From contig JAUYSO010000017.1 of NCBI GenBank assembly GCA_030696265.1, positions 136,368-168,807 on the forward strand: a stretch of DNA of 32,440 nucleotides, in the 5' to 3' direction. A model generated the notes under the pieces. That model worked only from the letters and a program-made list of their open reading frames with translations. It was not told where the DNA came from and searched no databases. Below are positions 3,033 to 21,268 of this stretch, piece by piece. The translations under genes were made by a program, and so were the position numbers. This DNA is from Myxococcales bacterium (GTDB taxonomy: Bacteria; Myxococcota; Myxococcia; Myxococcales; Myxococcaceae). Within the stretch, counting starts at the first letter, position 1. Each line of letters begins with the position of its first letter.

Positions 3033-5096
3033 GTGCGCGTCCTCTCTGCGGTCGTGAAGGTGCTCGTCGGGCTCACCCTTGGCGTCGTCATCGCCGAGCT
3101 CGTCTTCCGTGCGCGTGACGACGGCGCGTTCCCTCACCTGAACCTCTACGAAGAAGACGCGTCGCTCGGCGTGAAGCTCGCGCCGAACGCGCAGATGAAG
3201 CTCAAGCTCGGCACCAACCCGACGACGACCATTCACACCAACGCGCTCGGCTTCCGCGGGAGCGACTGGGCATCCCCTGCTCCGACCGACGTCCTGGTGG
3301 TCGGCGACTCGCAGGTCTTCGGACTCGGCGTGGAAGACGGCGAGACGTTTTCGGCGCAGCTGGCGGCGATTCGGAAAGTGAACGTGCTCAACGCGGGCGT
3401 GCCGACGTACGGCCCGGGCGAATACACGGCGCTGGTCGAGCGCCTCGTCGCCGAGCGAAAGCCGAAGCACGTCGTCTACGTGATGAACGTGTCGAACGAC
3501 CTCTTCGAGCTCGGCAAGCCGAACAGCGGCCGCCACCACGTGTGGGACGGCTGGGCGGTGCGCAGCGAGACGGCTCCGACCTCGACGGTGAACTTCCCGT
3601 TCCGGCACGCGGTGATGAACGGTTCTCACCTCGTCTACGCGGCCCGCCGCCTCATGGCCGGCTCGGTGAACCTCGCGCAAGAGAGCGCTGGAGAAGGCAC
3701 GTGGAAGGACATCGTCACGGCGTCGTCGGTCACCAAGCCGCTGGAGCGCGACGACACCGCGACGAAGGAGGCGCTCGAGAAGCGCAACGCGACGACGAAG
3801 CAGCTCGACGAGCTTCAGCTCGAGCTCGACCGTCACGTGACGGACCGGATCAACCAGAACGAGCCGTACGCGCAGGCCGCGAAGGTGCTCCCGCCGCTCA
3901 AGAACGGTGACCCGCGCGACATCGTGCAGGTGCCGTTCATGGAAGGCGCGCGCGCCGTCGACGTCACCGCGCACCAGCTCTACACGGCGGCGCTCGGCAT
4001 CGAGGGCAACGAAGACAAGCTGCTCGCGATCGCCGAGAAGACGAAGGACGCCGAGCTGAAGGCGCTCGTCGAGAAGCGCAAGGCGCTGCGGATCGCACTG
4101 GGTTCGACGCTGGGTACTTCAGACGCCCACGCCGTCACGCCGCTCGAGGCTCTTTTCCAGCGCACGAAGGACGCCTGCGACCAGGCGGGAGCGACATTGC
4201 TGGTGGTCGCGCTTCCGCTCGACGTGATGGTCTCGAAGGACGAGTGGAAGAAGTACGGCAAGGAGCCTGTCGACCTCTCGGTCACGCAGGTCCTGCTCGA
4301 CGACATCGTGTCGCGCGCTGAAGCGATTGGTGCGCTCGCGCTCGACCCGACCGAGGCGCTCCGCAAGGCCGAGCCCGGCGCGTTCCTCGACGGCGACCTT
4401 CACCTCACGCCGAAGGGCCATCGTGCCTTCGCTGAAGCGCTCCACGTGGCGCTCGACTCGAAACCGAAGCCGAAGAGCGCACTCGTGTTGCCAGAAGGTC
4501 GTTCGTGGCCGCCGACGGACGACGAGTGGCGCGCCGTGCCTGAGGTGAACGTGAAGGGCTCGACCGCCGCGAACTGCGAGACCCGGCAGGTGCGCGAGTG
4601 GTTCCGCATGACGTGCCGGGATCTGTACCCTGATGAAGAAGACGCTCCGACGCTGCGCGTCGAGTCGATTCAGGTGCTCCGTGGAGGCCACGGCGACGTG
4701 TTGCTCGACGGCTCGTACAACCAGCGCACCGTGATCCTGCCGGTGCTCGATGGAGAGACGACCGTCCTCGACGTCGCCTGGGAAGACCACACGCGCGAGC
4801 TCATCCTCGAGCACCCCAAAGGCGGCGCGCCGAAGCGAGCCTTCGGCGACAAGGAACCGAAACGGAAGACCGAGCGCCCAAACTGGAAGGGGATGGATGC
4901 CGACGGGAATCCCTGTCGCGACCGGCGCTGTGAGCCAGTGGAGTGGTCGAACCCGCTCCGGGCCATCACCTGCAAGGAGGGCGAAGTGCCCTCCGGTGCG
5001 CTCCGTCGCTGCGCCGTCCCCTGTAACACCTCGGCGCCCTGCGCGACGGGCACGTGCCACCCGTGGCCGACCGGCGACTTCTGCGGAGCGCCCTGA
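3033..5096 (+). CDS. Membrane-anchored SGNH/GDSL-family hydrolase or acyl-esterase with a long helical middle region and a Cys-rich C-terminal domain.
   Basis: GTG start. The N-terminal hydrophobic helix is VLVGLTLGVVIAELVF. SGNH block I reads VLVVGDSQVFGLGVEDGETF and is followed by NAGVPTYGPGEY. About 12 Cys lie in the last 150 aa (CETRQVREWFRMTC…CRDRRCEPVEW…CAVPCNTSAPCATGTCHPWPTGDFC). Third-position GC is high throughout. Confidence 0.7.
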   Translation: MRVLSAVVKVLVGLTLGVVIAELVFRARDDGAFPHLNLYEEDASLGVKLAPNAQMKLKLGTNPTTTIHTNALGFRGSDWASPAPTDVLVVGDSQVFGLGVEDGETFSAQLAAIRKVNVLNAGVPTYGPGEYTALVERLVAERKPKHVVYVMNVSNDLFELGKPNSGRHHVWDGWAVRSETAPTSTVNFPFRHAVMNGSHLVYAARRLMAGSVNLAQESAGEGTWKDIVTASSVTKPLERDDTATKEALEKRNATTKQLDELQLELDRHVTDRINQNEPYAQAAKVLPPLKNGDPRDIVQVPFMEGARAVDVTAHQLYTAALGIEGNEDKLLAIAEKTKDAELKALVEKRKALRIALGSTLGTSDAHAVTPLEALFQRTKDACDQAGATLLVVALPLDVMVSKDEWKKYGKEPVDLSVTQVLLDDIVSRAEAIGALALDPTEALRKAEPGAFLDGDLHLTPKGHRAFAEALHVALDSKPKPKSALVLPEGRSWPPTDDEWRAVPEVNVKGSTAANCETRQVREWFRMTCRDLYPDEEDAPTLRVESIQVLRGGHGDVLLDGSYNQRTVILPVLDGETTVLDVAWEDHTRELILEHPKGGAPKRAFGDKEPKRKTERPNWKGMDADGNPCRDRRCEPVEWSNPLRAITCKEGEVPSGALRRCAVPCNTSAPCATGTCHPWPTGDFCGAP

Positions 5097-5780: not shown

Positions 5781-6656
5781 TCAGGGCGGCGCTTCGAGCT
5801 TCAACGCGCCGAGCAGCTGCTCCCACCCGCGCTCGAGCTCGGGCCCGGCCTCGTTCGGACCGGTCGCCTCGAGCGTCAACGCCGGCGCTCGGCTCGAGGG
5901 CGCACCGGCGTGCACCCACTCGAAACGAAGCGTCTTCACGGCGGCAGGCGTGGTGAGCGTCATCACCAGCTCCGTCCCGCGCAGGCCAGCCACGGTACGG
6001 GAGCGCTCACGGAGAACCTGGAGCGTGCCGCCGAGCTGCTCCACCTCACGCGCGATGTCGGCTGGCGCTCGTTCTCGGGCGACGACGTTCGAGCTCACGA
6101 TGAGGCTCAGGCGAGCGCGAGCCGGGCCGACGAGCGAGAGCCGGGCGTTCTCGACCTGGGAGACGCGCTGAAACGCACCGTGCTCGACCCCGAACCCATC
6201 ACGACTGTGCGGCGTGTAGACGCGCACCAATTCGCGCAGCAGCTTCTCGGCGATGGGCAGCTTGCCCTCGGGAAACTCGCGGCGCAGCCACAGCACGTGG
6301 TCGTCGTACGGCTTCATCAGCTCGATCAGCAGATCGTTCCCACTCATGAAGGTGACCGCGCGGCCTGCGTCGCCCCAATCGAACCGCTCCCGCTCGGCGC
6401 CGGCAGGGAGCGCGGCGAGGTGACGTGCCCACCGCTCGTCGGGCGACAGCTCCAGCGGCTCGGTCCACGCCTCGGTGCCGGTGAGCACCGTCTCACTGCT
6501 CTCGCGGGTGAAGCCGGGTGGCACGCCGACGCGCAGGCGGCCGAGCGGCAACAGCGACGGCGCAGCGACAGGTTGCACGTCCACGTTCGGAGCAAAGAGA
6601 GGTCGAGGGCTGGCGCAGCCCACCGCGATCGTGGCGACCATGAGCCAGTGCCTCAC
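5781..6656 (-). CDS. Lipoprotein of unknown function.
   Basis: The N-terminus MRHWLMVATIAVGC carries a lipobox (AVG|C). The amino-acid composition is balanced. It converges on the di-iron gene with a 6-nt gap. Confidence 0.7.
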   Translation of the reverse strand: MRHWLMVATIAVGCASPRPLFAPNVDVQPVAAPSLLPLGRLRVGVPPGFTRESSETVLTGTEAWTEPLELSPDERWARHLAALPAGAERERFDWGDAGRAVTFMSGNDLLIELMKPYDDHVLWLRREFPEGKLPIAEKLLRELVRVYTPHSRDGFGVEHGAFQRVSQVENARLSLVGPARARLSLIVSSNVVARERAPADIAREVEQLGGTLQVLRERSRTVAGLRGTELVMTLTTPAAVKTLRFEWVHAGAPSSRAPALTLEATGPNEAGPELERGWEQLLGALKLEAPP

Positions 6657-6731: not shown

Positions 6732-8432
6732 ATGAGCGCCGTGCTCGGCATCTCGGCGAACTACCACGACGCGGCGGCGGCGCTGGTCGTCGACGGCCAG
6801 CTCATCGCGGCGATGCAGGAGGAGCGCTTCTCTCGCATCAAGAACGATCCCTCGTTGCCGATCGCCGCCGCGCGCGCGTGTCTGGCGATGGCGAAGCTCG
6901 ACGTGAAAGACCTCACGCACGTCGTCTTCTACGAGAACCCGTACCGCAAGCTCGAGCGCGTGCTCACGATGATGCTGCGCTCCTTCCCTGGCTCCTTGCG
7001 CCAATTCCCGCGCGCCATCGCGTCGCAACTGAGCGGCAAGGTGCAGGTCCTCGACGAACTCTCGAGCCGCCTCGGGGTTCCGCGCGACCGCATCAGCCAT
7101 CGCGAACACCACGAGTCACACGCCGCGAGCGCGTTCTTCTGCAGCCCCTTCCCTCGCGCCGCCGTGCTCACCGTCGACGCCGTCGGCGAAGAGACCTCGA
7201 CCGCGCTGTGGCTCGGCGAAGGCACCACGCTCACGCTGCTGGAGCGCATCACCTTCCCCCACTCGCTTGGCCTGCTCTACTCGGCGCTGACGGCGTGGTG
7301 CGGCTTCGAGGTGAACGAGGGCGAGTACAAGGTGATGGGCCTCGCCGCGTTCGGCACGCCGCGCTTCCGCGCCGAGTTCGAGAAGCTCGTCACGCTCGCG
7401 CAAGACGGCAGCTTCGAACTCCACCTCGAGTACTTCGACGCGCACGCGAACACCGAGGTCGGGTTCTCCTCGAAGCTCGAGGCCCTGCTCGGACCGCGTC
7501 GCATGCCGGGTACGCCGTGGAACTTCTCCGACGCCGCCGATCGACGCTTCGCCGACGTCGCGTGCACGCTCCAGGCAGTGCTGGAGGACGCGATGTTGGG
7601 GCTCGCGAGCCGAGCGAAGGCCCGCACGCAAGCCGACGCGCTCTGTCTCGCTGGAGGCGTCGCGCTCAACGCCGTGTCGAACGCCCGCCTCGCGCGCAGC
7701 GCCGGTTTTCGTGACGTCTTCGTTCAACCTGCCGCAGGCGACGCGGGTGGAGCACTCGGTGCCGCCCTCCTCGGGGCCCTCGACGCGCGCACGCCGCGAG
7801 TCACTCCGATGGAGCACAGCGCGTGGGGCCTTCCTGTCTCGGCCGATGACGCACGCAGCATCGCGACGTCGCTCGGCCTCAAGATGACTTCGCTCGCGAA
7901 CCCCGCGACCGACGTGGCCGCGCTGCTCGCAAAAGGAGACGTCGTCGCCTTCGTGCAAGGCCGCTTCGAGTGGGGCCCGCGCGCGCTCGGCCATCGTTCG
8001 TTGCTTTCGCTCCCGACGCCGCTCGCCGTGAAGGAGCGCCTCAACCGCGTCATCAAACGCCGCGAGCCGTTTCGCCCGTTCGCGCCCGCGGTGCTCGAAA
8101 GCGACGCCTCACGCTTCTTCGGTCCCTTCGCGTCACGCCTCGCGCCGTTCATGGTGACGGTGGCCGACGTGAGAGACGACGCGAAGCCCGTGCTCGAGGC
8201 CGTCACGCACGTCGATGGCACCGCGCGCGTGCAGACCGTGCTTCCCTCCACACCCTTCGGAGCCCTCATCGACGCGGTCGGCCGCCAGACGGGAACACCC
8301 GTGGTGCTCAACACCTCACTCAACGGGAAGAGCGAGCCCATCGTCGCGTCGGTCGCTGACGCGTTCGCGTTCTTTCTCGGCCACTCCGCCGACGCGCTGG
8401 TCGTCGAGGACGTGCTCATTCGCAAGTCGTGA
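6732..8432 (+). CDS. Carbamoyltransferase of the NodU/CmcH/TobZ family (O-carbamoyltransferase).
   Basis: The N-terminus MSAVLGISANYHDAAAALVVDGQLIAAMQEERFSRIKNDPSLP is the conserved start of this family. The metal-binding motif HHESHAASAF is present. A GGVALN-type ATP-binding region follows later. The ORF-track entry 5910..8432 is an artefactual 5' extension that overlaps the minus-strand lipoprotein gene. Confidence 0.9.
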   Translation: MSAVLGISANYHDAAAALVVDGQLIAAMQEERFSRIKNDPSLPIAAARACLAMAKLDVKDLTHVVFYENPYRKLERVLTMMLRSFPGSLRQFPRAIASQLSGKVQVLDELSSRLGVPRDRISHREHHESHAASAFFCSPFPRAAVLTVDAVGEETSTALWLGEGTTLTLLERITFPHSLGLLYSALTAWCGFEVNEGEYKVMGLAAFGTPRFRAEFEKLVTLAQDGSFELHLEYFDAHANTEVGFSSKLEALLGPRRMPGTPWNFSDAADRRFADVACTLQAVLEDAMLGLASRAKARTQADALCLAGGVALNAVSNARLARSAGFRDVFVQPAAGDAGGALGAALLGALDARTPRVTPMEHSAWGLPVSADDARSIATSLGLKMTSLANPATDVAALLAKGDVVAFVQGRFEWGPRALGHRSLLSLPTPLAVKERLNRVIKRREPFRPFAPAVLESDASRFFGPFASRLAPFMVTVADVRDDAKPVLEAVTHVDGTARVQTVLPSTPFGALIDAVGRQTGTPVVLNTSLNGKSEPIVASVADAFAFFLGHSADALVVEDVLIRKS

Positions 8433-8435
8433 GCG

Positions 8436-8609
8436 ATGCTCTCGCCCGTGCTGTCCGTCCGAACGCTCAGAGACCTCGTCGGCCACTTCGCGAAGCAGAA
8501 CAGGCTCGTCCTGCTCCCGCTCCTCGTGGTGCTGTTGCTCGCGGCGGTGCTGCTCGTGCTGACCCAGGGCCTCGCGTACGTCACGCCCTTCGTCTACGCG
8601 CTCTTCTGA
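8436..8609 (+). CDS. DUF5989/SxtK-like small membrane protein of 57 aa. It is not in the ORF track because it is shorter than 60 aa.
   Basis: The ATG is 3 nt after the carbamoyltransferase stop. The translation is MLSPVLSVRTLRDLVGHFAKQNRLVLLPLLVVLLLAAVLLVLTQGLAYVTPFVYALF. This fits the DUF5989 pattern: a basic N-terminus, one TM helix, and a conserved LTQG…PF(I/V)Y(A/T)LF C-terminus. Proteins of this type typically sit next to carbamoyltransferases. Confidence 0.65.
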   Translation: MLSPVLSVRTLRDLVGHFAKQNRLVLLPLLVVLLLAAVLLVLTQGLAYVTPFVYALF

Positions 8610-8719
8610 AGGCGAGCTTCGAAGCCACACCTGTGACGGCTGGCGTCACGAAGCCCCACGACAACCATCCGGCTTCTGGCCATGGAGCGTTGGCAAGGCC
8701 TGTGCTTCGTTCCGCGCTC

Positions 8720-10033
8720 ATGAAAACTCCAGCCCTGCTCCTGCTCTCCAGCGCGCTGCTGCTGTTCGCCTGCCCGCCTCCGCCTGGCACCTGCGCGACG
8801 ACCGGTACTGGCTCCATCGCGGTGACGTTCGCGGGCCTGCCCGCAGGCACGGACGGCACGGTGACGCTGATGGGCCCGACGTCGCAGACGCTGACGATGG
8901 GCCAGACGGTGATGGTGGGCGCGGGGACCTGGGCGGTCTCAGGTGGCCTCGTCACCGTCAGCGATCCGCTCGTTCGAACCGTCTACGCCGCGCGTGCGTC
9001 GGCGCCGAACTTCTGCCTCGTGAAGGACGCCACGCAAGCGGTCACGGTGACGTGGACGAAGGTCGCCACCAGCAACCGCCTGTGGGTCGGCAACAGCTCG
9101 GGCGGCATGGGCAGCACGCACGCCTTCGACTCGGCGAGCCTCGCCACCACGGCCACGGTCACCTCGTCGTGGAACGCCAACCTCGCAGCGAGCGGCTCGA
9201 CCGCCTTCGACAAAGAAGGAAACCTCTGGGCGCTGGGCAACACGACGGTGGACCCGTTGATCGCCCGCTTCCCAGCCGAGGGCTTCGCGACGCCTGCCGC
9301 GCCGATGGCCGACCGCCGCATCGAGGTGGCCGGCGTGAGCTGTTTCCCGCGCGCCAGCGCCCTCGCCTTCGACAAGAACGGCAACCTCTTCGTGGGCTCG
9401 AGCTGCAAGCGTGAAGTCTACAAGCTGCCGGCGGCGTCGCTCGATGGCTCGAGCACCGTCACGCCCTCACTGACGTTGACCGGCTTCATGGCGGTCTCGG
9501 GCCTGGCCTTCGACAAGGACGGCAACCTCTGGGTCTCCGACTCGTCGACCGAGGAGCTGCTGCGCTACGACTTCGGGTCACTCGACGGCGCCTCGGCAAC
9601 GGCCACGCGCCGGGTGAAGGCCCGCAAGTCAGACCAGCCAGCCGACCCCTCTGCGCTGAAGCCTGACGCGCTGGCGTTCGACAAGGACGGGAACCTGTGG
9701 AGCTACGACTTCGGCCTCAACCTGGTGTTCGCCGTCCCCGCCGCGGAGCTCCCCGGCACCGGTCCCCGGTCGGCGACGCCGCTGGTGCGCATCTCGCTCC
9801 CCGTGAGCGCGGTGCTCGAAGGGCTCGCGTTCGATGAAGGTGGCGGGCTGTGGCTCCCGTACAGCGCGGGCAACCTCGCTCGGCTGGCTCCGGCACAACT
9901 GACGGTGAGCACCGGCTCGGGAGCCCCGACGGTGCCCGACACCATCATCACCGGCTCGTCGCTCGGCAGCGCGCAGGGCCCCGCCTTCTACCCGGCAGCG
10001 AAGGGCACGCCGCTGTTCCACGCGTTGCCGTAG
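8720..10033 (+). CDS. Lipoprotein with an NHL/SGL-type beta-propeller fold of unknown function.
   Basis: The N-terminus MKTPALLLLSSALLLFAC carries a lipobox (LFA|C). A propeller-blade motif recurs at least five times: AFDKEGNLW, AFDKNGNLFV, AFDKDGNLWV, AFDKDGNLW and AFDEGGGLW. The ORF-track start at 8429 is an Arg/Pro-rich extension that overlaps the DUF5989 gene. Confidence 0.75.
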   Translation: MKTPALLLLSSALLLFACPPPPGTCATTGTGSIAVTFAGLPAGTDGTVTLMGPTSQTLTMGQTVMVGAGTWAVSGGLVTVSDPLVRTVYAARASAPNFCLVKDATQAVTVTWTKVATSNRLWVGNSSGGMGSTHAFDSASLATTATVTSSWNANLAASGSTAFDKEGNLWALGNTTVDPLIARFPAEGFATPAAPMADRRIEVAGVSCFPRASALAFDKNGNLFVGSSCKREVYKLPAASLDGSSTVTPSLTLTGFMAVSGLAFDKDGNLWVSDSSTEELLRYDFGSLDGASATATRRVKARKSDQPADPSALKPDALAFDKDGNLWSYDFGLNLVFAVPAAELPGTGPRSATPLVRISLPVSAVLEGLAFDEGGGLWLPYSAGNLARLAPAQLTVSTGSGAPTVPDTIITGSSLGSAQGPAFYPAAKGTPLFHALP

Positions 10034-10036
10034 CGG

Positions 10037-11770
10037 CTACGGGATCGTCAGGACCGCCTGCGAGAAACCCGCTTTGCCTCCCGGAGCCGCTGGTCCACCG
10101 GGGCCCGGGTTGTTGACGGTCGAGGTCAGCGTCACGCTGCTCGACACAGAGACGACGCCGATGGAAGGCCCGCCTGCGCCAGCTCCGCCTGGGCCGCCCT
10201 GCCCGCCTTCGCCTCCGGTGCCGCCGTCGCCAGCGCCCGGCACGTTCATCATCTGGGCCGTGAGTTGACAGGAAAAGGCACAGAGGGAGCGATTGCAGCT
10301 CGCGCCAGTTGGGTTGAGACAGCTCAACGGGTTGCCCTGGGCGCCGAGCGAGCCACCCGCGCCAGCGCCACCATCAGCACCTGCTCCACCGATTCCGCCA
10401 GCGCCTGACTCGAGCCTCGAGTTCGTCACCACCATGGTGCTGCCGCCAGCAGCGAACAGCGCAATCGACGCGCCGGCGCCGATGCCTCCCGCAGCCCCTG
10501 CTCCTCCAAGGCCGCCACAGCCACACCTGCCGCTGGAACCGCTCATCGCAGTCGTGGAGACGGGGCAGGCGAGCATCTGGTTGCTGCAGTTGGGTGGCGC
10601 GCTGCAACCGACGGCGCACGGTGTCGGAATGGGTGCCGGCGCGATCGTGCCGTTGAAGCCGGGCCCTCCAAGTATTCCAGGTGCGCCGTGGCCCGCAAGG
10701 TACCCAGTGATGTCGAACCAGCCGCCATCCGACGGACGGCCCATGGCGCCCCGCAGGCCAGGCCCGCCGCTGGAGCAGTCGTTCGTTCCAGCGCATGAGG
10801 TGGTGCCCGTTGCCGCAGCGGGGTCCATCGGCGTGCCCCCATTGCTCGCGTCGTTTGCGATCACCAGCACGTCGTCGAGCGCGACGTTCGACGCCGTCGC
10901 CCGAAGCCCATACGTCGAGCCGTTCTTCATGTTGGTGTCGCCCGAACGAACGGTGAGTTGGCGGACAGTCACCGGATCGCCGGAGACCGCGACGAACTCG
11001 AGGCCCACGCCTGAACCCTGAATCACCGTGCGGGCGCGAGCCGAGGGAGCGCAGTCACGTGACCAGTCGGGCAGAAATCCACCCGACAACGTGCGCCCAC
11101 CCTGCACGCTGCCAAGGGTGAGCGTCTCTGCGTAGACGCCCGGCGCGATGGCGATGACGGACCTGCGCTGCGTCCGCGAGAGTGCGCGATCGATGGTCGC
11201 AAACGGCGCAATGGCGGTTCCGGCGTTGGTGTCGCTCCCGCCGTCGACGTTCACGAAGTAGGTGTCGAGCGGGTTGAGTTGTGCGCCACACCCTGCTGTT
11301 CCGCCTGCGACTCCGCCGCCTGCGACTCCGCCACCAGACGTTCCGCCACCACCGGCGATTCCGCCACCGGACGTTCCGCCGCCTGCGATTCCTCCGCCTG
11401 ACACTCCGCCGCCTGACGTTCCGCCCCCTGCAATGCCGCCGCCTGCGATTCCGCCGCCTGACGTTCCGCCGCCTGACGTTCCGCCCCCTGCGATTCCTCC
11501 GCCTGACGTTCCGCCTCCTGCGATTCCTCCGCCAGCCGTACCGCCGTCACTGTCGAGGCAGTACCGGCCAGCCTCGAGCGAGACGCAACGCAGGCCCTCC
11601 GGGCACCCTCCGTCTGCCTCACACCTGAAGTTCACGCCCGTGGGGAGGCTGCACCCCGCGAGCACCATCGCCAGGAAACAGATTGTGGTCCAACGCACGG
11701 AATCACCATAGCCGCTTTCCCGCGCAGACGGAGCCAGCCGCATACGAGAGTGAAGCGCTGCTGACATCAC
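10037..11770 (-). CDS. Secreted lipoprotein: N-terminal Cys-knot-like motif, (GG[IT][AS]G)x15 linker, DUF1565-like right-handed parallel beta-helix, and a Gly-rich C-terminus.
   Basis: The signal peptide and lipobox are …FLAMVLAG|C; the start could be ATG 11770 or 11743. The N-terminal motif CEADGGCPEGLRCVSLEAGRYC is followed by the tandem Gly array. After it, PFATIDRALSRTQ…IAIAPGVYAETLTL matches the N-terminal signature of DUF1565 beta-helix proteins. The C-terminal 200 aa are Gly/Ala-rich. Confidence 0.75.
   Translation of the reverse strand: MMSAALHSRMRLAPSARESGYGDSVRWTTICFLAMVLAGCSLPTGVNFRCEADGGCPEGLRCVSLEAGRYCLDSDGGTAGGGIAGGGTSGGGIAGGGTSGGGTSGGGIAGGGIAGGGTSGGGVSGGGIAGGGTSGGGIAGGGGTSGGGVAGGGVAGGTAGCGAQLNPLDTYFVNVDGGSDTNAGTAIAPFATIDRALSRTQRRSVIAIAPGVYAETLTLGSVQGGRTLSGGFLPDWSRDCAPSARARTVIQGSGVGLEFVAVSGDPVTVRQLTVRSGDTNMKNGSTYGLRATASNVALDDVLVIANDASNGGTPMDPAAATGTTSCAGTNDCSSGGPGLRGAMGRPSDGGWFDITGYLAGHGAPGILGGPGFNGTIAPAPIPTPCAVGCSAPPNCSNQMLACPVSTTAMSGSSGRCGCGGLGGAGAAGGIGAGASIALFAAGGSTMVVTNSRLESGAGGIGGAGADGGAGAGGSLGAQGNPLSCLNPTGASCNRSLCAFSCQLTAQMMNVPGAGDGGTGGEGGQGGPGGAGAGGPSIGVVSVSSSVTLTSTVNNPGPGGPAAPGGKAGFSQAVLTIP
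11293..11545. repeat. About 17 tandem copies of a 15-bp unit (consensus ccgcctgacgttccg / ccgcctgcgattcct). On the minus strand it encodes the (GGxxG)n linker.
   Basis: Direct reading gave cctgacgttccgccgcctgacgttccgccccctgcgattcctccgcctgacgttccgcctcctgcgattcctccgcc. There are no spacers, so this is not CRISPR. Confidence 0.85.
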
Positions 11771-11797: not shown

Positions 11798-13330
<1,533 letters not shown>

Positions 13331-18306: not shown

Positions 18307-18672
18307 ATGTCGTCTCTGTCGAAGTGCCCAGCGTGTTCAGGCGTCGTCCCCGTTTCACTCTCCGAATGTCCCCACTGCGAGGGACCGCTCACGCCGAGGT
18401 CGTCGCTCGGCAGGCTGGCGATGGGCCTGCTCGGAGGACTCGGGGCCTCGATGACGCTGATGGCCTGCTACGGGGCGCCTGCGACGGGCTGCCGGTCCGT
18501 CAGTGAGACGCTCCCCGACGGAGGCGTGACCAGCACCTTCCGCTGCCCGGGTGACCTCGTGAACCAGCCCGACGGTGGCACGACGGTCTTCACCGACGAC
18601 AGCGGCGCGCCCTCCGACGCCGGCGCTTCGGACGGCGGCTCACGAGACGGCGGCGCTGACGGCGGGCCCTGA
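18307..18672 (+). CDS. Small Cys-rich protein of 121 aa: double CPxC zinc-ribbon, a hydrophobic helix, and an acidic Gly/Ser/Asp-rich tail with further Cys. Candidate substrate of the downstream rSAM.
   Basis: The ATG is preceded by GGAGGGAG about 9 nt upstream. The translation is MSSLSKCPACSGVVPVSLSECPHCEGPL…LAMGLLGGLGASMTLMACYGAPATGCRSVSETLPDGGVTSTFRCPGDLVNQPDGGTTVFTDDSGAPSDAGASDGGSRDGGADGGP. The ORF-track entry 18016..18672 includes an Arg/Pro-rich junk extension at the 5' end. Confidence 0.6.
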   Translation: MSSLSKCPACSGVVPVSLSECPHCEGPLTPRSSLGRLAMGLLGGLGASMTLMACYGAPATGCRSVSETLPDGGVTSTFRCPGDLVNQPDGGTTVFTDDSGAPSDAGASDGGSRDGGADGGP

Positions 18673-18682
18673 GGCACCGCCC

Positions 18683-19909
18683 ATGACGCGTCGACAAGAC
18701 CTCTCGCAGGCACACCACCCGGCCTACGTCGTGTGGGAGCTCACGCTGGCGTGCGACCAACCGTGCACGCATTGCGGCTCACGCGCCGGCGAGGTGCGTG
18801 AAGGCGAGCTGTCGACGCAGAAGGCCCTGTCGGTCGTGCAGGAGCTCGCTGCCATGGGCACGCGTGAAGTCGTGCTCATCGGTGGCGAGGCGTACCTGCA
18901 CCCGGGGTTCCTGGAGATCATCGCGGGGCTGAAGGCCGCCGGCATTCGGCCGGTGCTCACGACGGGAGGGCGCGGCATCGATCGCGCCCTCGCGTTCAAG
19001 ATGGCGGGCGCGGGGCTGTACCAGGCCTCCGTCTCCATCGATGGCCTCGAGCCGACGCACGACCTGATGCGCGCCGCCCGAGGAAGCTTTCAATCGGCCA
19101 CCGCCGCGATGGGCTTCATGCGCGAGGCCGGCATCGTGGTGTCGGCGAACACCAACGTGAACCGCCTCAACCTGGGCGATCTCGAAGACCTCTTCGAGCA
19201 CCTGCGAGCACAGGGCATTCACGCGTGGCAGGTGCAGATCACCGCGCCGCTCGGCCGCGCTGCCGACCGGCCCGCGATGCTCCTCCAGCCGTGGGACTTG
19301 TTGAACGTCGTGCCGCGCGTCATCGCGCTCAAGAAGAAGGCCTGGGCCGAGTCGCGCATCGCCGTGATGGCCGGGAACAACCTGGGGTACTTCCACCCCG
19401 AGGAGCCGGTGCTCCGTTCGTTGCCCGAGCACCCCGAAGACGCGTGGCGTGGCTGCAACGCGGGCAAGTTCGTGATGGGCATCGAAGCGAACGGCGCGGT
19501 GAAGGGCTGCCCCTCGCTGCAGCCGTCGTACATCGGCGGCTCGCTGAAGGACTCGACGTTGAAGCAGGTCTGGGACGAGGCGCCACAGCTGGCGTTCGCG
19601 CGCGCGCGCACCGTCGACGACCTCTGGGGCTTCTGCCGCACGTGCCCGTTCGCGCAGGAGTGTCTGGGCGGCTGCACCTTCACCGCGCACTCGGTGCTGG
19701 GTCGCCCGGGGAACAACCCGTACTGCTACTTCCGCGCGCGTGCGCAGCAGAAGAAGGGCGTTCGCGAGCGGCTGGTGTTGCGGGAAGCAGCGCCGGGACA
19801 GCCGTTCGACAACGGCCGCTTCGAGGTCGTCGAAGAGCCGTTCGACGCCGTCGATGTGAAGCCGCCGACCCCGCGCGAGCTCGTGAAGAAGCGCGCGCCA
19901 ACCGTCTGA
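18683..19909 (+). CDS. Radical SAM enzyme with a C-terminal SPASM domain; PqqE/MftC/anSME-like peptide- or protein-modifying maturase.
   Basis: The ATG is 10 nt after the stop of the small Cys-rich gene. The N-terminus reads YVVWELTLACDQPCTHCGS, giving CX3CX2C in the same context as PqqE-type enzymes. A GGE-like VLIGGEAYL SAM-binding segment is present. The C-terminus has CNAGKFVMGIEANGAVKGC…CRTCPFAQECLGGC, i.e. C-x11-G-x5-C followed by CX2CX5CX3C, the auxiliary-cluster signature of a SPASM domain. Confidence 0.9.
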   Translation: MTRRQDLSQAHHPAYVVWELTLACDQPCTHCGSRAGEVREGELSTQKALSVVQELAAMGTREVVLIGGEAYLHPGFLEIIAGLKAAGIRPVLTTGGRGIDRALAFKMAGAGLYQASVSIDGLEPTHDLMRAARGSFQSATAAMGFMREAGIVVSANTNVNRLNLGDLEDLFEHLRAQGIHAWQVQITAPLGRAADRPAMLLQPWDLLNVVPRVIALKKKAWAESRIAVMAGNNLGYFHPEEPVLRSLPEHPEDAWRGCNAGKFVMGIEANGAVKGCPSLQPSYIGGSLKDSTLKQVWDEAPQLAFARARTVDDLWGFCRTCPFAQECLGGCTFTAHSVLGRPGNNPYCYFRARAQQKKGVRERLVLREAAPGQPFDNGRFEVVEEPFDAVDVKPPTPRELVKKRAPTV

Positions 19910-19927: not shown

Positions 19928-21268
19928 ATGTTCCGTCTTCACCCGCGCTGGCTGCTCGGACTGCTGTTGCTCGCCGCCTGTGCGCCGCCCGCCCCCGACC
20001 CCGTCGTCACGCTCAACGGCGTCGCGAGTGGCGCTCCAGTGAAGCTCGGCGAAGTCTCGGCCTGGGACATGGAAGACGGCCTCAGGGCGCAGCTGAGTCT
20101 GGTCTCGTCGAGGAGCACGGTGACCTGCACTCGCGATGGCGCCGCCGACCCGTGTCTGCGCACCACGACAGGAGAAGACCGGGTCGACCTGTCCTGGCCC
20201 CGCACGAAGCTGGGCAGCGAAGAGACCACGGTCGTCGTGTTGGTCGACGGCGTCGAAGCCGGGCGCTGGGTCGTCTCACGCTCCATCGTCGACCTCGGCC
20301 TCACGGTGTGCGCGGCGAACACGAGCGCTGAAGATGATGGGCTCCCGCTGGACCGCTGCAAGGCGCTGAACCCGTTCGGTGACCTCGAGCTGCCAATCGA
20401 CCGAACCGACGCGGTGCTGATCAAGCGTGCGCGCTTCAGCGTTCGCAGTGGGGAGACGACGGTGAAACGAATCAGCGTCGTCTCTCACGGCGACGACGAG
20501 AAGGGCGGGCTCGGCGGCCTCCTGCCCTTCTTGAAGCTCATGCCGGTGACGGCAGAGACGTCGGCGCTGCTCGAGCTCGACACGCGGGCCAACGTGACGG
20601 TGGGAACCCGAGCCCTGAGCTGGCCGGCTGCCTCCGCGACGGGCCGTACGGTTCGCGACCTCGACCCCACCCGGGCTCCGGTGCGGGTGCGCATCGGGTC
20701 GCCGGTGGAGATCTCGCGGAGCATTCAAGCCATCGCGGAGCCCGCGACGCTGATCGGCTTCCGCGACGAGGCCGGCATCCTCACGCTGACGTCGTCGTTG
20801 CCCGCGCAGCTGGAGCCCTCGGCGCCCACCGGCCTCACGGTCGTCATGAGCCCGAAGGCCGTCGGAGCCCGCTCCGTCTGGCCGCGGCTCACCGTTCGTG
20901 GCTCGACGGGCGAGTGGACCGACCGCATCCCCTTCGCCATCGAGGGGCTCGCCGCGACCGATTGCAGGCTCAAGGCCTCTGACGTCAACGTTGGCTCGGC
21001 AGTCGTGGGCGAGACGCGCATCGCCCGGCTTCAGGTGCGCAACACCGGAACCGGAGCGTGCACGAAGCTGCGCGTGCGGCCGTTGCCTGCCGGGCTCGGG
21101 CTCGAGTCGAGACCGATTCCCGCGCCCGGCGCGATGGCCGAGTGGACTCTGTCGTTCACTCCGCGGACTGTGGGTCCGCAGGTCGTGTTGCTCGAAGCCG
21201 ACTTCGATGACAGCCAGCCGTCGTTCGCCGATCTCACCGTTCGCGTGGAAGCGACCGTCACCCGGTGA
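19928..21268 (+). CDS. Lipoprotein of unknown function with a beta-sandwich-like C-terminus; third gene of the rSAM operon.
   Basis: An AGGAG RBS lies 5 nt upstream of the ATG, and the gene starts 18 nt after the rSAM stop. The N-terminus MFRLHPRWLLGLLLLAAC carries a lipobox (LAA|C). The C-terminal region (…TDCRLKASDVNVGSAVVGETRIARLQVRNTGTGACTKLRV…) looks like an ASH/choice-of-anchor-type beta-sandwich. Confidence 0.75.
   Translation: MFRLHPRWLLGLLLLAACAPPAPDPVVTLNGVASGAPVKLGEVSAWDMEDGLRAQLSLVSSRSTVTCTRDGAADPCLRTTTGEDRVDLSWPRTKLGSEETTVVVLVDGVEAGRWVVSRSIVDLGLTVCAANTSAEDDGLPLDRCKALNPFGDLELPIDRTDAVLIKRARFSVRSGETTVKRISVVSHGDDEKGGLGGLLPFLKLMPVTAETSALLELDTRANVTVGTRALSWPAASATGRTVRDLDPTRAPVRVRIGSPVEISRSIQAIAEPATLIGFRDEAGILTLTSSLPAQLEPSAPTGLTVVMSPKAVGARSVWPRLTVRGSTGEWTDRIPFAIEGLAATDCRLKASDVNVGSAVVGETRIARLQVRNTGTGACTKLRVRPLPAGLGLESRPIPAPGAMAEWTLSFTPRTVGPQVVLLEADFDDSQPSFADLTVRVEATVTR

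Follow-up and report, generated by a model that had tools for sequence, protein, structure and literature searches.

An SxtK/DUF5989 microprotein beside a carbamoyltransferase in a Myxococcota module lacking SxtJ, and its parallel with DltX

What does a membrane microprotein of 57 residues do beside a carbamoyltransferase outside any toxin cluster? The question is raised by a 32,440-nucleotide (nt) stretch of a Myxococcales genome (contig JAUYSO010000017.1, positions 136,368 to 168,807, referred to here as the window), in which an O-carbamoyltransferase (CT) gene is followed almost immediately by a very short open reading frame (ORF), referred to here as K. The product of K is an ordinary member of a known domain of unknown function, DUF5989, to which SxtK of the saxitoxin cluster belongs, and it stands beside the usual enzyme partner of that family. 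What stands out beyond the known is a four-gene arrangement specific to Myxococcota, together with a parallel between the C-terminal FXYXXF tail of K and that of the microprotein DltX. The identity of the gene and the synteny of its module, taken alone, can be stated with high confidence.

The K ORF extends from an ATG at 8436 to a TGA at 8607..8609 (57 codons) and begins 3 nt (GCG) past the CT stop codon. Its product matched the Pfam family DUF5989 (PF19451) with 53.0 bits (E 3.4e-14, gathering cut-off 27), residues 9-57 aligning to positions 2-49 of the 49-position model. The G+C content by codon position (0.71/0.33/0.95) resembles that of the flanking genes and drops to 0.59/0.65/0.69 in the 110-nt gap 3′ of the K stop. 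There are 46 close homologues, and codon comparison with individual orthologues gave synonymous to non-synonymous differences of 16:2, 15:3, 13:3, and 10:2 (L013, L012, L011, and L010 in our numbering of loci), or about 5:1 overall for the close ones. High-GC DNA yields many spurious ORFs, but a chance, unexpressed frame can be dismissed in view of a Pfam score twice the gathering value, a third-position G+C (GC3) of 0.95, the excess of synonymous changes, and conservation across phyla.

The start codon is ambiguous, as the ATG at 8436 is not kept in L010-L012, which carry only a GTG equivalent to window position 8448; translation may begin at either, the first giving 57 amino acids (aa) and the conserved GTG a 53-aa protein starting 15 nt after the CT stop. 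An earlier, sequence-only reading of the window had described a CT gene followed 3 nt on by a 57-codon ORF, assigned the latter to DUF5989, considered the two translationally coupled, and called the small ORF unannotated. Its coordinates and quoted sequence were all verified, the Pfam scan bears out the family, and the tight spacing backs the coupling. The word "unannotated" holds for the ORF track then in use and not beyond it, since the public contig bearing the same sequence already has K called and tagged PF19451, and NCBI names its relatives "DUF5989 family protein". By these comparisons K is a genuine gene of a known family and not new as a gene.

The upstream reading frame (ATG 6732, TGA 8430..8432) starts with MSAVLGISANYHD and contains HREHHESHAASAF / HHESHAASAF, the conserved His-rich metal motif, as well as GPRALGHRS, a GPRALGxRS motif of the type regarded as the putative catalytic site of SxtI (bioRxiv 10.64898/2026.06.11.731795). 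Carbam_trans_N (Kae1-like, 227.9 bits) and Carbam_trans_C (YrdC-like, 187.9 bits) were each matched over their full length, in agreement with the earlier identification from the hallmark N-terminus and HHESHAASAF, and the protein aligns end to end with the solved enzymes GdmN (E 4e-85), NovN, and TobZ (E 3e-71). Assignment as a NodU orthologue was rejected, the equivalog model NF041651 scoring 139.7 bits against a cut-off of 1000. Neither a signal peptide nor a transmembrane (TM) segment was found in CT, which is predicted to be cytoplasmic. O-carbamoyltransferases of the TobZ family employ carbamoyl phosphate and ATP, and we infer by analogy that this enzyme would do the same. TobZ, GdmN, NovN, and NodU share its full two-domain architecture and conserved motifs but, unlike it, work by themselves, with soluble antibiotics or Nod factors as substrates and no SxtJ or SxtK partners.

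Genomes were scanned with aligned K homologues, which gave 50 loci, mostly from Myxococcota; the window proteins were then run against these with tblastn. In about 20 of these the order is collinear with that of the window, namely a TM-anchored SGNH protein, a ferritin-like di-iron protein, CT, and K. The genomes bearing this four-gene unit are labelled Myxococcaceae, Archangiaceae, Nannocystaceae (including Enhygromyxa salina), and Polyangiales, with one metagenome-assembled genome (MAG) labelled Bdellovibrionales and another labelled Caulobacteraceae. CT and K are adjacent in about 25 Myxococcota loci, the di-iron gene runs up to or into the CT gene in about 13 of the collinear ones, and the flanks of the module vary among relatives. 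The 291-aa Tli4_C-like gene that separates the di-iron and CT genes in the window occurs only in L005, L007, and L014, its nearest relatives, and is absent from L010-L012 and from all Nannocystaceae- and Polyangiales-type loci; on this distribution it is best regarded as a lineage-specific insertion outside the module. The beta-propeller lipoprotein gene downstream of K is likewise ruled out as a member by synteny, being absent after K in L005 and L014, 3.6-6 kb away in L010-L012, and absent from all distant loci.

The sequence-only reading had assembled a similar module from the CT-K pair, SGNH and di-iron genes "just upstream", and the propeller gene 111 nt downstream. Inclusion of the SGNH and di-iron genes is justified by the collinear loci, although they are not just upstream of CT, the opposite-strand 291-aa gene (5781..6656) intervening. 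The propeller gene does not form part of a conserved block, as it is missing or distant in relatives, and its gap to K is 110 nt (ATG 8720). That reading had also overlooked the absence of SxtJ and the occurrence of DUF5989 away from CT. With these corrections, the Myxococcota-wide four-gene module is, judged by gene content and order, an SxtJ-less variant of the widespread SxtJ-SxtK-CT(-GDSL) cassette.

In the saxitoxin cluster this cassette reads sxtI (CT), sxtJ, sxtK (165 bp), and sxtL, a GDSL lipase (PMC2679770, PMC2684587). An exhaustive profile search returned at least 818 DUF5989 representative clusters (50% identity, E<=0.001), and 80 metagenome loci were collected in a scan seeded with a narrower alignment of the mainstream subfamily, the broader one being too diverse; the 80 are biased toward that subfamily because of the narrower seed. 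The order is J-K-CT in 37 and CT-J-K in 26 (together 63/80), CT lies elsewhere in 5 more, and the 12 loci that show no CT are on mostly short contigs. With CT in 68 of the 80 loci, the claim that DUF5989 is linked to CT beyond toxin clusters stands. About 75 loci have SxtJ encoded immediately upstream of K, and Pfam confirmed two examples as PF19588. Among the 117 ORFs flanking these cassettes, GDSL-lipase families are the commonest, followed by sugar-nucleotide enzymes, aminotransferases, glycosyltransferases, and methyltransferases, and the cassettes often lie inside polysaccharide gene clusters. Of the 51 loci whose flank reaches 1 kb or more, 13 have an LA_2490-like SGNH gene no farther than 1.5 kb from the block; the 12 SGNH neighbours that were usable are all anchored by an N-terminal TM segment, after which comes an A-E-x-x-[FL]-R-type motif, as in the window protein.

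The saxitoxin block and its non-toxin counterparts thus resemble the window in the CT family, in a PF19451 protein (about 54 aa) beside CT, and in a GDSL/SGNH gene within the block. They differ in that the window has no SxtJ (PF19588) and has instead a di-iron membrane protein directly upstream of CT in the module, in that the sxt-type SGNH protein has 426 aa whereas that of the window has 687 aa and contains a helical insertion, a beta-sandwich, and a Cys-rich domain in addition, and in that the saxitoxin cluster has toxin core genes whereas the window has none.

As a separate observation, Sinorhizobium/Ensifer megaplasmids carry J-K-CT, for instance S. meliloti Ak57 pSymB (L143 6962..13993) and NC_003078.1 (484420..484563). 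The Ak57 pSymB annotation lists a hypothetical protein in the SxtJ position, a DUF5989 protein, and a carbamoyltransferase; about 2.5-5 kb upstream it has a 671-aa "acyltransferase" and also a response regulator. The K match falls on no annotated feature in most Sinorhizobium/Ensifer records examined. A literature search on pSymB and carbamoyltransferase gave nothing relevant. This cassette offers a tractable host for the study of K function.

What takes the place of SxtJ in Myxococcota? A custom hidden Markov model (HMM) was built from 15 SxtJ sequences and run on six-frame translations of the loci; it found SxtJ neither in the window nor in any Myxococcota locus, and in an earlier set of 58 loci it found a true SxtJ in one, L044 (Nitrospinota). 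Weak matches to one conserved helix of this model (positions ~63-102) did occur in about 25 orthologues of the di-iron protein, over the C-terminal ~40 residues, and were nearly absent otherwise. Alignment of the di-iron helix (176-215) with SxtJ by hhalign gave P 3.9e-5 and a probability of 70% over 40 columns; the Pfam SxtJ model did not match the di-iron protein. These results are suggestive of a membrane helix common to the two proteins, and the di-iron protein, sited where SxtJ would be, may replace SxtJ in Myxococcota, perhaps as a fusion.

The "di-iron" label of the sequence-only reading is itself sound. The protein of the window passes no Pfam model, with sub-threshold AurF and Phenol_Hydrox matches only, but the ligand pattern E31, E61xxH64, E109, E148xxH151 is kept in aligned full-length orthologues, and in L039 the orthologue scores above the Pfam thresholds of both Phenol_Hydrox and Rubrerythrin. 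The single-sequence AlphaFold2 (AF2) model of this protein was poor, with a predicted local distance difference test (pLDDT) score of 52.7, and was left out of the fold search. A further hint of association between J and K, of the Rosetta-stone type, is possibly given by a 116-aa representative protein (P0176) in which the C-terminal half of SxtJ is fused to a complete SxtK, or this may be a gene-calling artefact.

K itself consists of a basic N-terminus (RTLRDLVGHFAKQNR), one hydrophobic TM helix, and an uncharged 15-residue tail (TQGLAYVTPFVYALF). From its charge distribution, by the positive-inside rule, an N-in/C-out topology is predicted. The tail ends in T-P-F-V-Y-A-L-F, corresponding to a family pattern A-P-F-[IV]-Y-x-x-F-COOH, of which P(-7), F(-6), Y(-4), and F(-1) are kept in all 137 diverse DUF5989 representatives and A(-8) at a frequency of 0.91; no other position is fully conserved in this set and the N-terminal segment is variable. 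The best 150 representatives include 138 with a C-terminal F.Y..F, and DUF5989 sits almost always at the extreme C-terminus of proteins of 50-80 aa.

The same ending is known from DltX. In Bt407, DltX (about 48 aa) has an 11-residue cytoplasmic N-terminus, a 22-residue TM segment, and a 15-residue outside tail, GFHDTNTSTFIYNEF (PMC5541007). Its FXYXXF tail is described as an "acyl shuttle", DltB, a membrane-bound O-acyltransferase (MBOAT), placing D-Ala on the tyrosine and the TM-anchored SGNH protein DltD delivering it to lipoteichoic acid; other MBOATs, among them PatA, have the motif as a fused part, and for PatA an acetyl-Tyr intermediate has been demonstrated (PMC12148441). K and DltX are alike in having about 50 aa, a basic N-terminus predicted inside, a single TM helix, and a 15-residue predicted extracytoplasmic tail that closes with F-[IV]-Y-x-x-F-COOH, its tyrosine 11-12 residues past the helix, as well as an L-K-E-L-W-like segment near the N-terminus. 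Their operons are alike in an N-terminally TM-anchored SGNH protein, for K a candidate partner, and a cytoplasmic adenylate-forming activating enzyme, which for K applies to Myxococcota. They differ in that the DltX system has an MBOAT (DltB), a carrier protein, and an aminoacyl cargo, whereas the K module has neither MBOAT nor carrier and its cargo would be carbamoyl, and in that K, unlike DltX, is found in Gram-negative/diderm lineages. PatA/PatB, AlgI/AlgJ/AlgX, and further MBOAT-SGNH O-acetylation pairs are comparable too, the motif being offered there on the outward side of the membrane to a periplasmic SGNH-like transferase, as proposed for K, and the SGNH protein of the window matches the AlgX Pfam family; in those pairs, however, the motif is fused to an MBOAT with acetyl-CoA as donor, whereas that of K is free-standing with no MBOAT encoded nearby.

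Sequence similarity between K and DltX is weak and does not establish homology. None of 41 diverse DUF5989 members matched the DltX Pfam family PF12459 at E<=10. With the 41 sequences, hhalign aligned DUF5989 and DltX collinearly from end to end (P 0.0018, probability 14.6%), the DltX profile being shallow because the seed search gave B. cereus-group sequences only; with 14 DUF5989 sequences, the tail alone was aligned. No paper linking SxtK to acyl shuttles, and none mentioning DUF5989, was found in a literature search.

The SGNH protein, 100% identical to NCBI Q8S33_06865, would be the periplasmic partner. Across 50 homologues the residues G91-D92-S93-Q94, N155-D156, and D455-x-H457 are kept, as are several cysteines toward the C-terminus and, where the N-terminal TM helix ends, A21, E22, and F25. 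The AF2 model, a confident one (pLDDT 85.7), has the TM helix first, then an SGNH core that a helical insertion of ~180 residues (about 200-385) divides in two, and last a beta-sandwich with a Cys-rich end (about 515-687, cysteines invariant). On this model the catalytic domain would be periplasmic, and the Cys-rich domain is evidently extracytoplasmic. In Myxococcota this protein, with intact GDS...DxH and TM anchor, is collinear with K. The fold search with the model returned CgnD first, followed by generic esterases, and the fold does not separate transferase from esterase activity; CgnD is the crocagin leader peptidase of another myxobacterium, and the crocagin pathway, which yields a peptide made on the ribosome and modified after translation (RiPP), also has a CT, CgnI (PMC10070186).

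On this basis we propose that K is a membrane-spanning partner that couples CT chemistry to the periplasmic SGNH enzyme, the module modifying an envelope glycan or lipid, a statement for which, taken as a whole, we consider the case evenly balanced. Briefly, the cytoplasmic CT would activate carbamoyl phosphate with ATP in the manner of TobZ, K would insert N-in/C-out and bridge CT chemistry and the membrane-anchored SGNH enzyme in the periplasm, and the module would set or process a carbamoyl (acyl-type) group on the envelope glycan or lipid. The functional centre of K would be the tyrosine-containing periplasmic tail and not the cytoplasmic N-terminus. The physical contact among the parts, the choice of substrate, the way in which the group moves, and envelope carbamoylation itself are what we infer here, the last strengthened only indirectly, through the polysaccharide genes around mainstream cassettes.

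Several observations weigh against this proposal. No polysaccharide cluster surrounds the module in the window, the SGNH fold search singled out no DltD/AlgX/PatB-type transferase over ordinary esterases, and in the mainstream family SGNH adjacency reaches only about a quarter of loci. To our knowledge, there is no known route by which a cytoplasmic carbamoyl donor would reach the periplasmic side. The members of the saxitoxin pair are themselves given as of "unknown" function or are hypothesized to cooperate with SxtI (PMC2885083; bioRxiv 10.64898/2026.06.11.731795). K also occurs with neither CT nor an SGNH gene close by. In about 17 Archangium-type loci its start overlaps the stop of an upstream gene (ATGA) encoding a membrane-anchored TlpA/ResA-like redoxin with a CxxC motif (WAPWCGVCK). 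Loci of this kind (L002, for example at 9459..10162; L008; L015-L017; L020-L034) come from Archangium/Myxococcaceae-type MAGs, their K genes are 75-85% identical, and a tetratricopeptide repeat (TPR) protein is encoded next in L002-L004 and L015. In two further loci (L051, 9002..10782; L052, 9028..11082; Latescibacterota and Gemmatimonadaceae MAGs) K has no CT or SxtJ within ~10 kb; read by eye, the 314-aa upstream gene looks like prs and the downstream gene is apt-like.

The redoxin-K genomes that were checked still contain the SGNH gene, and one still contains the di-iron-CT pair. In Archangium sp. 5N606 (JASGKS010000001.1, 9.4 Mb), SGNH-di-iron-CT without K lies at 7.42 Mb (L141 8001..12416) and redoxin-K at 6.38 Mb (L031), ~1 Mb away; in another such genome the SGNH homologue stands alone. 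From these arrangements it appears that K can work in trans, or that it has a role beyond a strict tie to CT.

The alternative that survives best, though still somewhat unlikely, is that K, with SxtJ or the TM helix of the di-iron protein, only recruits or stabilizes the soluble CT at the inner membrane for a lipid-linked or membrane-bound substrate, the tail being a structural anchor and the SGNH protein an independent esterase or a decarbamoylase, as proposed for SxtL. The tight spacing of CT and K, the dominance of CT adjacency, the lack of a membrane segment in CT, and the basic N-terminus of K, cytoplasmic by the positive-inside rule, are all consistent with such a role. However, it is the CT-facing N-terminal segment that is least conserved and the tail on the opposite side that is invariant, and because this conserved tail lies across the membrane from CT, K would be more than a cytoplasmic tether. 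Moreover, K persists apart from CT, after a periplasmic TlpA-like redoxin, and the saxitoxin intermediate is a soluble small molecule with no obvious need of a tether.

A stricter version of our proposal takes the parallel with DltX literally: SxtK/DUF5989 would be a DltX-type carbamoyl or acyl shuttle whose Tyr54 accepts the CT-activated group and passes it to Ser93 of the SGNH protein and then to an envelope polymer, with SxtJ or the di-iron helix as membrane conduit instead of an MBOAT. Resting on analogy with DltX, this is advanced tentatively and is rather doubtful as it stands. No MBOAT was found in scans of the window, nor is MBOAT among the 25 commonest of the 144 families in the ORFs flanking the mainstream cassettes. 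If true, it would be the first MBOAT-independent acyl-Tyr relay as well as the first pathway for trans-membrane O-carbamoylation, and the roles of SxtJ and SxtK would both be accounted for. If the parallel is functional, acyl-Tyr relay chemistry reaches carbamoyl groups and systems devoid of MBOAT; if it is superficial, the locus is no more than an ordinary example of a known DUF. The parallel makes testable the "unknown function" that SxtJ and SxtK have had since the saxitoxin cluster was described, for a family that is large, nearly universally tied to CT, often placed in polysaccharide loci, and invariant precisely in the FXYXXF tail shared with DltX and PatA.

That K is a general membrane microprotein unrelated to carbamoyl transfer, for example a partner of periplasmic anchored enzymes, with its linkage to CT reflecting operon history, is decidedly unlikely. 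Such a role would account for the redoxin-K loci with their ATGA overlap, for the position of K after a putative prs with no CT within 10 kb, and for its relocation from SGNH-di-iron-CT in Archangium sp. 5N606. Against it, 63 of the 80 diverse loci hold J-K beside CT, and because this adjacency is kept in two different gene orders, selection on the linkage is indicated; the retention of SGNH, and in one case of di-iron-CT, in the redoxin-K genomes also leaves room for K acting in trans.

A role for the CT-K pair in tailoring a secondary metabolite, comparable to that of sxtI/J/K in the case of saxitoxin, is very improbable. The cassette is homologous to sxtI-J-K-L (PMC2684587), and the nearest structure to the SGNH domain, CgnD, comes from a RiPP pathway with a CT (PMC10070186). 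Yet in scans of the 32-kb window no polyketide synthase (PKS), non-ribosomal peptide synthetase (NRPS), amidinotransferase, RiPP precursor, or other natural-product core gene, sxtA and sxtG included, was found, as the sequence-only reading had maintained. The neighbours are housekeeping genes (MFE-2-like, atpD, MsrAB, cytochrome bd), the module flanks differ between relatives, and the SGNH protein is anchored in the membrane and has a Cys-rich domain that is evidently extracytoplasmic.

The gene order of the window (G+C 68.7%), derived from frame-specific GC3 and from Pfam and NCBIfam scans, is given in Table 1.

Table 1. Features of the window discussed in the text, with positions counted from its first nucleotide.
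Feature	Position	Strand	Basis or remark
SGNH/AlgX-like protein, 687 aa, TM-anchored	3033..5096	+	Pfam AlgX match, AF2 model
Ferritin-like di-iron protein, 224 aa, C-terminal TM helix	5100..5774	+	two ExxH motifs, weak family matches
Tli4_C-like protein, 291 aa	5781..6656	-	Pfam Tli4_C 26 bits, cut-off 25; type VI secretion system immunity-type domain
CT, TobZ/NodU/CmcH-type O-carbamoyltransferase, 566 aa	6732..8432	+	Pfam Carbam_trans_N and Carbam_trans_C
K, SxtK/DUF5989 microprotein	8436..8609	+	PF19451 53 bits, GC3 0.95, synonymous excess
Beta-propeller lipoprotein	8720..10033	+	
577-aa protein	10037..11770	-	
atpD	11831..13330	+	
Radical SAM/SPASM protein	18575..19909	+	
446-aa protein without Pfam match	19928..21268	+	

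The rest of the window is housekeeping, with genes for an MFE-2-like enzyme, HDOD, radical SAM/SPASM, MsrAB, KASIII-like, amidohydrolase, YkuD, and cytochrome bd proteins. A promoter and terminator scan of the locus returned nothing informative. A GC-rich inverted repeat with perfect 6-bp stems (GTGACG-gctgg-CGTCAC, 8633..8649, + strand) begins 24 nt past the K stop and could mark the end of the operon as a terminator; the hairpin occurs in the minimum free energy fold, has no T-run, and lies in a region that folds no better than its shuffles (z -0.41). Farther downstream, the radical SAM/SPASM protein and its 446-aa neighbour could be a peptide-maturation pair, separate from the K module.

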